Shown here one piece after another: positions 41,933 through 46,056 of a stretch of DNA of 64,000 nt. This stretch comes from Eledone cirrhosa (Eukaryota), in assembly GCA_964016885.1 (NCBI GenBank), contig OZ024763.1, positions 5,952,001 through 6,016,000 of the forward strand, in the 5' to 3' direction. Within the stretch, counting starts at the first letter, position 1; each line of letters opens with the position of its first letter. The notes under the pieces are model-generated. The model made no database searches and had not been told where the DNA came from. It saw only the letters and a program-made list of their open reading frames with translations. A program made the position numbers and the translations under genes.

Positions 41933-42148
41933 ATGTTGCACCTGGTCACTCAACCTCTCGTTGTGTTGAGTTAGCTCCCTTATTATATTAACTTTGTCTT
42001 TATCTCCGGCAGTCAACTGTTGTTGCTGTCCCTGTAAATCCTGTCGTAGTTGGTTGACATCATCCTGCAGTTCCTTCACCGTGTTCTCATATTCCGCCTC
42101 CAGTGATTCCAGTCTCAACCGCAACGCATGGCGCTCCTGTTCCAGTTC
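41933..42148 (-). CDS. BICDL1: BICD family-like cargo adaptor exon (ELEQERHALRLRLESLEAEYENTVKELQDDV…IRELTQHNERLSDQVQH, 72 aa)
   Basis: 216-nt phase 0-0 exon with tattgtag acceptor and CAT|gtgagt donor. Strong resemblance to BICDL1 LEQEKHELRRRFE…ELESDVKQLQDEL…ELSEQNQRLLDQL (recalled). Confidence 0.92.
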
Positions 42149-43349
42149 CTACAATACACAACACAACACAACACTATATATATATATATATATACTACAA
42201 TACACAACACTATATATATATATATATATACTACAATACACAACACTATATATATATATATATATATATATATATATACTACAATACACAACACTATATA
42301 TATATATATATATATATATATATATATACTACAATACACAACACAACACAATATATATATATATATATATATACTACAATACACAACACAACACAATATA
42401 TATATATACTACTATACAATACACAACACAACACAACACAATATATATATATATATATACTACAATACACAACACAACACAATATATATATATATACTAC
42501 AATACACAACACAACACAACACAATATATATATATATATATACTACAATACACAACACAACACAATATATATATATATATATATATACTACAATACACAA
42601 CACAACACAACACTATATATATATATATATATATATATACTACAATACACAACACAACACAACACAATATATATATATATACTACAATACACAACACAAC
42701 ACAACACAATATATATATATATATATATACTACAATACACAACACAACACAACACAATATATATATATATATATACTACAATACACAACACAACACAACA
42801 CAACACAATATATATATATATACTACAATACACAACACAACACAACACAATATATATATATATACTACAATACACAACACAACACAACACAATATATATA
42901 TATATATATACTACAATACACAACACAACACAACACAATATATATATATATATATACTACAATACACAACACAACACAACACAACACAATATATATATAT
43001 ATATATACTACAATACACAACACAACACAACACAACACAATATATATATATATATATATACTACAATACACAACACAACACAACACAACACTATATATAT
43101 ATATATATATACTACAATACACAACACAACACAACACTATATATATATATATATATATATATATACTACAATACACAACACAACACAACACAATATATAT
43201 ATATATATATACTACAATACACAACACAACACAACACTATATATATATATATATATACTACAATACACAACACAACACAACACTATATATATATATATAT
43301 ACTACAATACACAACACAACACAACACTATATATATATATACTACAATA
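42149..43349. repeat. Compound array of ctacaata(cacaa)n(ta)n units, ~30 copies
   Basis: Directly visible. It begins exactly at the exon acceptor. Confidence 0.95.
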
Positions 43350-44316
43350 CTGAATTCTTGGCCCAGTTTATCATCAGTGTCCCATGTCATATAAAGATGT
43401 TTCTTTAAAGGACTATAATAGTTATAAAAGACAGTTAAACATCTCTGAAATACCTGCTTTAGTCCTGTTGTCTGCTGGTGTACTGCTCTGATTCACATAT
43501 TGGTCAAATGATTCAGCTACATTGAGAAGACACACAGTATTTATGTGTGTGAGTGTGTTTGTGTATATATACATATATATATATATATATATATAAACTT
43601 TCTAACCGCCTTCTTTGATTCTTACACATTGAAAATATATTCTTAAGAATTCTCTCTTAATTCTGTGGTACACCTGACTGGCTTGGCATCCACAGGTCAG
43701 ACTGCCTTCTTACACCCTCCCCTTTGTTCTTCAGGCCTGTTCAGAGAAGGTGTGGCAAAATACCAGGTGGACCATAACCATCCAGAGTACTTGATACTTG
43801 GGGTACTAGAGTGGGTAATGTGAAAAGATTCAGGACCCCGACGGCTGAGCTCCGGCCATTTCGACAGTTAAATCCAAACTGAATCGTAGGTCTTCGAACG
43901 GCGGGAATCTAGCTGAACTTATAGGAACAGGAAGTTGGTTATTAGTGGTGGGATGGAAGTGTGGTATTGGTTGGAAAGTGCTCCACTACAAAGTAGGAGC
44001 TAAAGATCAGAAAAGGTATGGTAAAATACCAGGTGGACCAGAACCCACCAGAGTACTCGATACTTGGGGTAGCAGAGCTCGGATCTAGCTGTCGAAGCTC
44101 AGGCATCAGGGTCCTGAATCTTTTCCTATATATATATATATATATATATATATATATATATATATATATATATATATATATATATATATATATATATATA
44201 TATATATATGTGTGTGTGTGTGTGTGTATGTAAAAGGTAAACAGAAATAACAACACAATCGGTACAATATATGGAAGGAACATATTAGGTTAACGCTTGA
44301 TATAGCAGGAAGAGGG

Positions 44317-44352
44317 TCTTAACGTTTCGGACGCTAGTCCTTCATCAGAAGA
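44317..44352 (-). ncRNA. Minimal type I hammerhead ribozyme motif (Penelope-like repeat)
   Basis: Minus strand: tctt CTGATGA a ggac tagc gtcc GAAA cg tt aaga. Stems I and II pair perfectly. Confidence 0.7.
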
Positions 44353-45261
44353 GAGAATGAAAACTTAGATAGATTGAGGGGACGGGCTGGTTGGAATTGG
44401 AAAAAATGTCTTTAGATAAAAATAACAAGTCCATTCATGTTGCCATCTCTTATATAGATATATATATATAATAGTAAGGGTGCAATTGGATTGCGTTCAC
44501 AGGCCATATGCCAAGATGAGCATTCGATGCTATTAGGGAGCAGAGTATCAATAATAATAATAATTAGGGAACAAAGAATCAGTGTTGCATCGTATACATA
44601 TTTAATTACATATTACATATGTTTCACTGTCGATCAGCTCGGGGAACGATTGATTATGTTTGTTCCTGACTCTGGAATCGAAAGCTCCTCAGATATGTGC
44701 TTTCACATGTAGACTCACATGTAGAGACACAATTACACAGTTATTATTATTAGTTTCACGCTTGTTGGGAAAGGAATGTTTTGATGTATTGGACATGAGT
44801 CCTTCATCAGAAAAGAGTAAAGTTAGGAGAAAGAGGATGTTTGAAGAAAAAACAATGTGTATGTATGTGTGAAACAAAAGGTTTAAGAGACATCCATGTG
44901 AAACAAAGTTTTATAAGGAATTTGAAGGATGCTCTGTAAACCATATAACAAACTTCAAGACATACCCTGTATTACAATAAAGTTTTATAATGAACTTTGA
45001 AATATTCTCAACAAATTTTAAGGGACAGTGTGTGATACAAAGTTTTATAACGAATTTTAAGGGACAGCCTGTGAAACAAAGTTTTATAACAAATTTTAAG
45101 GGACAGTATATGATACAAAGTTTTATAACAAAAACAATGTTTTATAAGGAACATGAAGGGTTAGCCCGTGATACAAAGTTTTATAAGGAACTATAAGGTT
45201 TGATATCCCTATGATACATATAATTAATAGTTTATGATGCAGAGGGTGTTGTATATTTTAC

Positions 45262-46056
45262 CTTAATCCGTATCTGTAGTTGTTTTACCTCCACTGAACT
45301 TTTTTGTTGGTTGTTCAATGTGATCCTACATTTCTTCATACGACTCTTCAGATTTACACTGGTGAAAGAATTTGTAAAAGCATCTCGAATTTGGTTCACC
45401 TGCTTCTCAAGAAGCTCAGCTTTTTGGAGATTTCGCTGACATTGGGCACACATGTAAGAACTTCCAACATCACAAAGCTTCAGTTCTTCAGATGCTCCAA
45501 TGAAATAAGAGATTCTTTCCGGGAGCGAGGAGGTGTTGCTCTTTTTCTGGCCCTTGAAGATGTTTGTGTAAGAAGAGCCACAGATCTTCAGGTTGTTTTC
45601 GCAGATCAGGCAGAAAATCTCCTCGCACTTGGACACCACGTGAACAGGTTTGTCGTATTTCTTGGGCATCTCTGGAGAACCAGGAGCAAGGTGACTGGTT
45701 TCCGAGGAGTTCGAAAAAAGGCTAGAACCAGAGGATCTCTGCAGATGTGTTGATGACGTCTCTGATGGAGCCAAAGACCCAACCTCGACTTCAACCTCAG
45801 CCTCAGCTTCGGTTAATTCCCAGATGTCCGAAAACTCAGAGTCTTCTGATGAATTCGAATTCTCCGATTCTTCTGGATCGTTTCTCAGTGTTTCTTCGTC
45901 GTTGTTTGCCTTCCCTTTCCTTGTAGAAGTATTTCCATATATTCCGTGTGTTCTGTGAGTTCCGGTTATGCAATTGTCTGGCACTGTAATATTTGGTTCT
46001 GTTATTTCTGCTTGTTCGGTGACTTCATATAGAACTGTAAACTGGGGGCTGTCCAT
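45262..46056 (-). CDS. ATG-initiated exon encoding an acidic/Ser-rich region and a ZAD-like (CxxC-x50-CxxC) zinc domain; candidate first coding exon of the adaptor gene
   Basis: 265 codons of complex sequence. ACAATGG start context with an in-frame TGA at 46080-46078. CLIC at 45612-45601 and CAQC at 45450-45439, followed by an amphipathic helix. AAG|gtaaaa phase-0 donor at 45262; the unspliced frame stops at 45232. Confidence 0.75.

Follow-up and report, generated by a model that had tools for sequence, protein, structure and literature searches.

A conserved exon encoding a predicted ZAD-like zinc domain, a probable alternative first exon of the octopod BICDL1/BICDR adaptor gene

We analysed a 64,000-nucleotide stretch of the Eledone cirrhosa genome (assembly GCA_964016885.1, contig OZ024763.1, positions 5,952,001–6,016,000 of the forward strand; hereafter, the window), the minus strand of which carries a gene for the dynein cargo adaptor BICDL1/BICDR. 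Searches by tblastn with octopus proteins placed nine coding exons of this gene in the window and three more past the window start (locus L011). On sequence comparison we identify the gene as the BICDL1/BICDR orthologue, because the isoform of Octopus bimaculoides that carries the canonical CC1 box (P0007) matches mouse BICDR1 at E 2.3e-49; the first shared exon in the window is identical to that of Octopus sinensis BICDL1 at 71 of 72 positions. Upstream of this shared exon lies a 265-codon exon encoding a predicted zinc domain (the zinc exon), which very probably serves as an alternative first exon of BICDL1/BICDR and gives rise to a real isoform. In window coordinates, the exon and its parts are:

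45262..46056, minus strand: alternative first coding exon of BICDL1/BICDR, 265 codons; the same exon and join occur in models of three octopods, with a single genome match
45673..46056, minus strand: acidic, Ser-rich N-terminal segment (residues 1–128), with 22–44% identity to four relatives, 47% S/E/D/T and a net charge of −19
45364..45660, minus strand: ZAD-like zinc domain (residues 133–231) with C149, C152, C203 and C206 and two predicted helices, the first short, the second long and amphipathic; suggested by conservation, zf-AD links and a predicted antiparallel homodimer
45325..45336, minus strand: basic patch KKCR (KKRR in the four relatives), by alignment
45262..45300, minus strand: last 13 codons, a coiled-coil lead-in in the heptad register of the CC1-exon end, then the phase-0 donor AAG/gtaaaa; by alignment with the four relatives

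An earlier, sequence-only reading of this stretch had described a 265-codon exon with an ATG, an upstream in-frame stop, a CLIC-x50-CAQC arrangement and a phase-0 donor at 45262, and we recovered all of these elements. The ATG at 46056 follows an in-frame TGA 21 nt to its 5′ side, the frame is open from 46077, and none of 5,000 base shuffles of positions 44900–46400 reached 265 codons or more (longest, 171). The encoded protein runs from an acidic, Ser-rich first half, in which residues 1–128 are probably disordered, through two CxxC pairs—CLIC (C149/C152) and CAQC (C203/C206), separated by 50 residues in a C-x2-C-x50-C-x2-C arrangement—to a helical tail. After codon 265 the exon reaches the phase-0 donor AAG/gtaaaa at 45262, and the frame beyond this donor extends for 9 further codons to its own stop. 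A second donor that had been proposed at 45289 (GAG/gtaaaa) does exist and is in frame, but we rejected it, as none of the nine available models uses it; it matches a simple donor consensus at 6 of 9 positions. A GT consensus match alone means little as donor evidence, because an in-frame GT after codon 219 (45400) scores 7 of 9, equal to the 45262 donor. Contigs from three sequencing runs over 44900–46400 (runs of unknown kind from one study and at most one sample) contained no splice joint at the donor and are uninformative on expression. At 45329–45330, two of these runs from one sample, X2 (depth 3.75) and X3 (depth 8.38), have contigs with two adjacent base changes, probably an allele, that turn codon 243 in the basic patch from Cys to His, where the relatives have Arg. 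The patch itself (KKCR/KKRR) resembles the nuclear localization signal consensus.

The join of the zinc exon to the rest of the gene is present in the gene models of other octopods. From 215 collected proteins, we took the 182 with at least 300 amino acids and a match to the shared region, comprising the best 120 of 413 matches, three homologue-search matches and the members of 13 clusters. A CC1-type motif was found in 168 of these and the zinc motif in nine, with neither motif in five proteins that have truncated or short N termini. The nine zinc-form proteins belong to three species, O. sinensis, O. bimaculoides and Argonauta hians, and each uses the equivalent of the 45262 donor; AAxxG, the CC1-box signature that lies about 30 residues ahead of HBS1, is absent from every one of them and from the zinc exon. 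CC1-form models are also annotated in O. sinensis (P0019) and O. bimaculoides (P0007). We rejected use of the two first exons in tandem, as none of the 182 proteins contained both motifs, and the sole acceptor-like site 5′ of the ATG (46077) would, in our reading, lead into a phase-0 stop.

Patterns of conservation are consistent with these models. Over residues 129–232, the zinc exon is identical to its counterparts at 94/104 positions in O. sinensis, 94/104 in O. bimaculoides, 93/104 in A. hians and 85/104 in P0015, an open reading frame (ORF) from a more distant genome (82–90%), exceeding the identity of the CC1 exon core to its own counterparts (60/76, 60/76 and 50/76, the third being record P0024; 66–79%). 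Constancy is higher still over the final 13 codons of the exon (13/13, 13/13, 13/13 and 12/13 in the four relatives), and all five sequences place CAQC 63 residues from the donor, without a single indel, unlike the upstream parts of the exon, in which indels are many. P0015 matches up to the equivalent of the 45262 donor and then continues with Val and unrelated sequence, as an ORF should if its frame crosses a GT donor; its read-through tail and that of the zinc ORF have only their first two residues (Val-Lys) in common. The zinc tail has V, L and I at positions −9, −6 and −2, where the CC1 exon has V, Y and I, so that both enter the shared exon in one heptad register. Selection, as read from these alignments, supports the join of the zinc exon to the shared exon. 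The suggestion that a continuous coiled coil runs from the zinc helix through the join did not hold, as the a/d positions in residues 232–252 are mostly non-hydrophobic.

The zinc exon exists beside the canonical first exon rather than in place of it. As had been reported for 46.1–64 kb, no CC1-box exon was found in the window. A genome search with the CC1-isoform N terminus, in the upstream direction in which the sequence-only reading had advised looking for an AAxLG exon, located an intact first exon of 134 codons with AAELG and the phase-0 donor GAA/gtaagt. Of the earlier alternatives, an alternative or a replacement first exon, we therefore retain the first, given the join in models of three octopods, and reject the second because the intact CC1 exon lies 46.7 kb upstream. 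Both first exons end in phase 0 and share the next exon, 42148–41933, whose phase 0, as given in the earlier reading, was borne out and which has a tag acceptor. The CC1 exon is longer here (134 codons) than in O. bimaculoides (93 residues), mainly through a Ser-rich expansion near the N terminus. The remaining parts of the gene located in this work are:

Window-equivalent 92727–93128 (G000:C24:6044727-6045128; L002:1501-1902), minus strand: CC1-box first exon, outside the window, 46.7 kb upstream of the zinc exon
41933..42148, minus strand: first shared exon, tag acceptor, phase 0, with HBS1/CC2-box residues Q4, H7 and E26 (mouse Q150, H153 and E172), by alignment
40725..40838, minus strand: shared coiled-coil exon, by tblastn
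19380..19526, minus strand: shared coiled-coil exon, by tblastn
18653..18838, minus strand: shared exon encoding LFNEL, the Spindly motif (consensus L-phi-x-E-phi; mouse L347–I351), by tblastn and alignment
8769..8945, minus strand: shared exon, 3′ end approximate, by tblastn
5341..5577, minus strand: shared exon, by tblastn
3610..3675, minus strand: 22-codon cassette exon, present in some octopod isoform models and skipped in others, by isoform models and tblastn
1638..1829, minus strand: shared exon, 3′ end approximate, by tblastn

In mouse BICDR1, according to the available text of one preprint (bioRxiv 2022.03.17.482250), the CC1 box (A116, A117 and G120) binds the dynein light intermediate chain (LIC), the CC2 box/HBS1 (Q150, H153 and E172) binds the heavy chain and the Spindly motif (L347 and E350) binds the dynactin pointed end. 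The octopod join aligns to the boundary between mouse residues 146 and 147. The zinc form thus loses the CC1 box and keeps the Q/H/E residues of exon 42148–41933, the LFNEL of exon 18838–18653 and the whole C terminus, so that the alignment bears out the loss of the CC1 box and the retention of the Spindly-like box and C-terminal end that had been predicted; the retained heavy-chain site, HBS1/CC2 box, in the shared exon goes beyond that prediction. Compared with BICDL1/BICDR1 (PDB 6f1u chain X), the zinc form has the orthologous coiled coil, the HBS1 residues, the Spindly motif and the C-terminal segment, and differs at its N terminus, where the 265-residue exon takes the place of all that precedes mouse residue 147, AAxxG with it.

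The zinc form looks cephalopod-restricted in the databases, although rare isoforms can be missing from them. In a set of 74 BICDR proteins from non-octopod invertebrates, chosen by identifier (abalones, mussels, oysters, other molluscs, one nemertean and others), the zinc motif was present in 0/74 and AAxxG in 74/74, and no zinc form was found among the vertebrate BICDR proteins examined. The zinc form was found only in octopod or cephalopod-like records, in line with the lineage specificity that had been proposed. Scanning 1.84 billion cluster representatives with the domain yielded five matches: P0003, P0015, P0018 and two repeat proteins. P0016 and P0017 were rejected as homologues, being tandem-repeat proteins that match over short stretches only. 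Homologue searches returned 3, 5 and 4 matches, the last being those among the top 8,000 candidates. Queries with the protein of the exon, with its DNA and with the distant relative P0018 each gave one match in the 3.0-Gb genome (lower bounds), P0018 returning only the zinc exon (E 3.4e-5); these counts disfavour a multicopy transposon ORF. From sequence comparison, then, the exon appears as a conserved, lineage-restricted alternative N terminus.

The domain encoded by the zinc exon is probably a ZAD-like dimer. Searched by phmmer against 1.84 billion proteins, the domain reached P0018 at E 5.3e-4, in an alignment of 112 columns that has 26% identity and pairs all four Cys. P0018 in turn matched zf-AD (PF07776) at E 1.6e-4 over profile positions 1–72 of 75, with 22.3 bits, which is below the 28-bit Pfam cut-off of the family. 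C149, C152, C203 and C206 are invariant in all five aligned sequences, P0018 included, and are predicted to bind zinc. As to a second zinc site, which the RAG1 NZD/Chapa domain forms from His/Cys extensions at its N- and C-terminal ends, all five cephalopod-like sequences keep H139 and C159, but no conserved His or Cys follows the long helix. Atlas placed the domain at 0.90 to a 760-member cluster of which 91% carry zf-AD (181 of 256 features in common), at 0.91–0.92 to mollusc clusters and at 0.86 to one in which 32% of members carry RAG1_imp_bd; these scores are to be read beside a calibration on whole proteins only, not parts, in which shuffled proteins reach 0.9 in 4–10 of 100. No zf-AD match was obtained for full-length zinc isoforms or for P0015; the zinc exon was not among the genome matches to the zf-AD family, and PF07776 and PF12560 appeared elsewhere only below threshold. 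RAG1_imp_bd had no match on the zinc exon, and Pfam assigned no family at E up to 0.01 to three full-length isoforms, which have the BICDR coiled coil instead of a C2H2 array. Matches of the domain profile or P0018 to PDB sequences included no ZAD, and the best of them (E 0.044, to Mis18, and 0.067) were not accepted. The ZAD assignment of the sequence-only reading thus survives as ZAD-like, with a predicted dimer and a transitive zf-AD link; with no Pfam match, we do not file the domain by sequence as a zf-AD member.

Modelling of two copies of residues 133–245 with two zinc ions supports the dimer. The dimer model scored 0.70 against 0.00 for the best of three controls, at least 64% of contacts were common between runs and the predicted local distance difference test score (pLDDT) was at least 73. 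In calibration, the mark for calling a dimer was reached by 21/30 solved pairs and 0/23 single chains from microbes, and by 17/29 pairs (7/16 for animals) and 0/30 single chains from eukaryotes. The modelled helices run antiparallel around L216/E217, with F227 against the partner's zinc module and the C termini apart, and the interface comprises domain residues 18–21, 50–54 and 77–99. By our mapping, the interface residues given for the CG2712 ZAD in the accessible text of PMC7913770 fall onto the octopod model at offsets of about +3 and +8.

ZAD/zf-AD domains (PF07776; Grauzone, CG2712 and Pita, with a ZAD-like domain in ZNF276) share with the octopod domain two CxxC pairs whose Cys are invariant. 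Solved ZADs have a treble-clef fold with a short helix 1 and a long helix 2, and in the octopod domain, too, a short helix is predicted to precede a long, amphipathic C-terminal one, with a homodimer in which the long helix lies on the partner's zinc module. The octopod domain differs in its lack of a Pfam match and in preceding a motor-adaptor coiled coil rather than a C2H2 array. Whereas insect ZADs are described as expanded and fast-evolving, with identity below 18% between the most divergent Drosophila members (PMC7913770, available text), the octopod domain is single-copy and highly conserved. The ZFa module of the RAG1 NZD and the Chapaev Chapa domain also resembles ZAD (bioRxiv 2026.01.24.700457), and RAG1_imp_bd is a weak Atlas neighbour (0.86); in the part of that preprint available, the NZD is described with two zinc ions and no dimerization role, whereas the octopod domain has one conserved Cys4 set, a predicted dimer and no transposase core. 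With ZAD-related modules present in the RAG1 and Chapaev transposases, the zinc domain may have come from a transposon. Atlas clusters of 139–184-amino-acid proteins, mostly from Mollusca where the phylum is known, scored 0.89–0.92, one of them with zf-AD in 30% of members; together with P0018 they may represent an undescribed non-arthropod ZAD-like family. Metagenome scans found nothing on the genomic context of P0018.

Several further features lie in or near the locus. A 46-bp tandem array of 25.9 copies (42149–43341) abuts the acceptor of the first shared exon and is the source of its TG-rich 3′ splice region. Intronic transposon fragments were found at 734–1045 (minus strand; Mos1-type helix-turn-helix, E 3e-10), 9979–10242 (minus; Pif1 2B domain, E 7e-6) and 53209–53553 (minus; zf-RVT, E 1e-6), and a fragment at 39395–39829 with no Pfam match looks LINE-like. 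A second, weak CC1-box-like match elsewhere in the genome (L003, G000:C13:30399632-30399754; E 0.117, 51% identity over 41 residues) probably belongs to another CC1-family adaptor gene. Two O. sinensis RefSeq models (P0019 and P0210) run from 5′ BICDL1 exons, with either first exon, into exons of RUS1/C16orf58, the join falling directly after the Spindly-motif exon (window 18653). RUS1 had no match in the window or in loci L007–L012, and the join could be due to read-through or to an error of annotation or assembly.

BICDR C termini bind Rab6. We hypothesize that the zinc form is a non-activating, cargo-holding adaptor isoform that exists beside the CC1 form, a proposal to which we give about an even chance. 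A separate second promoter would drive the zinc exon; its product would fold into a Cys4 zinc knuckle with a long helix predicted to pair antiparallel as in ZAD dimers, and the linker of about 20 residues (232–252) would let this antiparallel dimer cap the parallel coiled coil. Because ZADs prefer homodimers (PMC7913770; PMC12649048, as far as the available texts extend), zinc-form chains may pair with each other instead of poisoning CC1-form chains, and such sorting would make cargo competition likelier than heterodimer poisoning. Lacking the LIC site, the zinc dimer would assemble dynein–dynactin poorly and still bind cargo receptors at its C terminus, acting as a brake or tether in competition with the CC1 form for cargo. 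Poor assembly is proposed because, in the published text available, deletion of the CC1 box in CDR2/CDR2L abolished formation of the dynein–dynactin complex (PMC11580933) and LIC-binding mutants of other adaptors compromised assembly (PMC6336354).

Several points weigh against parts of this account. The evidence for the join comes from gene models and conservation; the zinc-form database models are automated, and those of Argonauta are possibly homology-derived and thus not fully independent. For the domain, Pfam zf-AD gives no match at E up to 10, the P0018 link is sub-threshold and the Atlas score lies in a range that some shuffled proteins reach. The dimer pass may reflect memory of, or likeness to, solved ZADs more than binding, because only one of seven eukaryotic pairs without an older solved relative passed the mark, which was calibrated without ligand. 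AlphaFold2 models were poor, both from the five-sequence alignment (pLDDT 53.9, predicted template modelling score (pTM) 0.31; helices at domain residues 46–54 and 72–110) and for P0018 alone (pLDDT 52.0, pTM 0.30; strand, strand, short helix, long helix), and with models of this quality neither Foldseek, which returned nothing at E up to 0.001, nor VIA, which matched the long helix only (best Z 5.4), was informative. On function, the CC1-deletion data come from other adaptors rather than octopus BICDR, and the conservation of the zinc domain seems to exceed what a mere brake or self-dimer would need, pointing to a conserved binding partner.

That conservation, above that of the CC1 exon core, is what an activating adaptor might show if its zinc domain were a substitute module for binding the LIC or another motor component. 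The domain occupies the place of the LIC-binding module in other adaptors (bioRxiv 2022.03.17.482250, available text), the CAQC-to-donor spacing of 63 residues is fixed in 5/5 sequences, and HBS1 and the Spindly motif are retained; their retention shows nothing, however, as both are also constrained by the CC1 isoform, and the function of ZADs in the literature accessible to us is dimerization (PMC7913770; PMC12649048). We consider it unlikely that cephalopods recruited a ZAD-like domain, whose fold is otherwise that of transcription factors and transposases, as a switchable adaptor head of this kind. If they did, promoter choice would swap two motor-engaging heads on one cargo adaptor, and the domain would form a fifth LIC-binding class beside the CC1 box, Hook, EF-hand and RH1. 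A similarly low probability attaches to antiparallel ZAD-like pairing between coiled-coil dimers, giving tetramers or chains that would serve as a vesicle tether, a cross-linker or a pre-paired second adaptor riding with a CC1-form adaptor. Two BICDR dimers are described per dynein–dynactin and mixed adaptor pairs have been proposed (bioRxiv 2022.03.17.482250, available text), and the modelled dimer is antiparallel with its C termini directed apart, but by our estimate the linker of about 20 residues seems long enough for a cap within one dimer.

A nuclear role, inside the organelle or at its surface, appears slightly less probable again; the domain and the patch would then steer import or bind a chromatin protein. 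Some ZADs are tied to nuclear transport (PMC7913770, available text), the N terminus is acidic and KKRR follows the domain in the relatives; against this, the isoform has no DNA-binding array, the remainder is a long coiled coil of cytoplasmic type, and the patch is KKCR in this genome, with a further codon change in the contigs of two of the three runs. Least probable, in our view, is an annotation artefact at the join, with the zinc exon forming an independent one-exon gene, or a transposon ORF since domesticated, inside the intron. The frame does stay open for 9 codons after the donor, up to a stop of its own, ZAD-related folds occur at the N termini of RAG1 and Chapaev transposases (bioRxiv 2026.01.24.700457, available text), and the domain has its 0.86 Atlas score to the cluster with RAG1_imp_bd. 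Conservation nevertheless ends at the donor, with read-through tails unrelated after Val-Lys, the tail follows the heptad register of the CC1-exon end, the genome match is single by all three queries and the exon matches no transposase family.

The sequence of the zinc form was already in automated annotations, unremarked, under the plain label "BICD family-like cargo adapter 1", and the full-text literature searched (most subscription journals not covered; supplements excluded) yielded no zinc-headed BICDR isoform. This adaptor class is taken to depend on its CC1 box, and the literature presents ZADs as dimerization modules of nuclear C2H2 proteins. A natural, conserved swap of one for the other would offer a ready test of whether HBS1 and the Spindly motif engage dynein without a LIC site, and would extend ZAD-like domains to a cytoskeletal protein in molluscs. 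If the zinc form is the non-activating, cargo-holding isoform that we propose, one cargo adaptor could toggle between motor-on and motor-off states through promoter choice.

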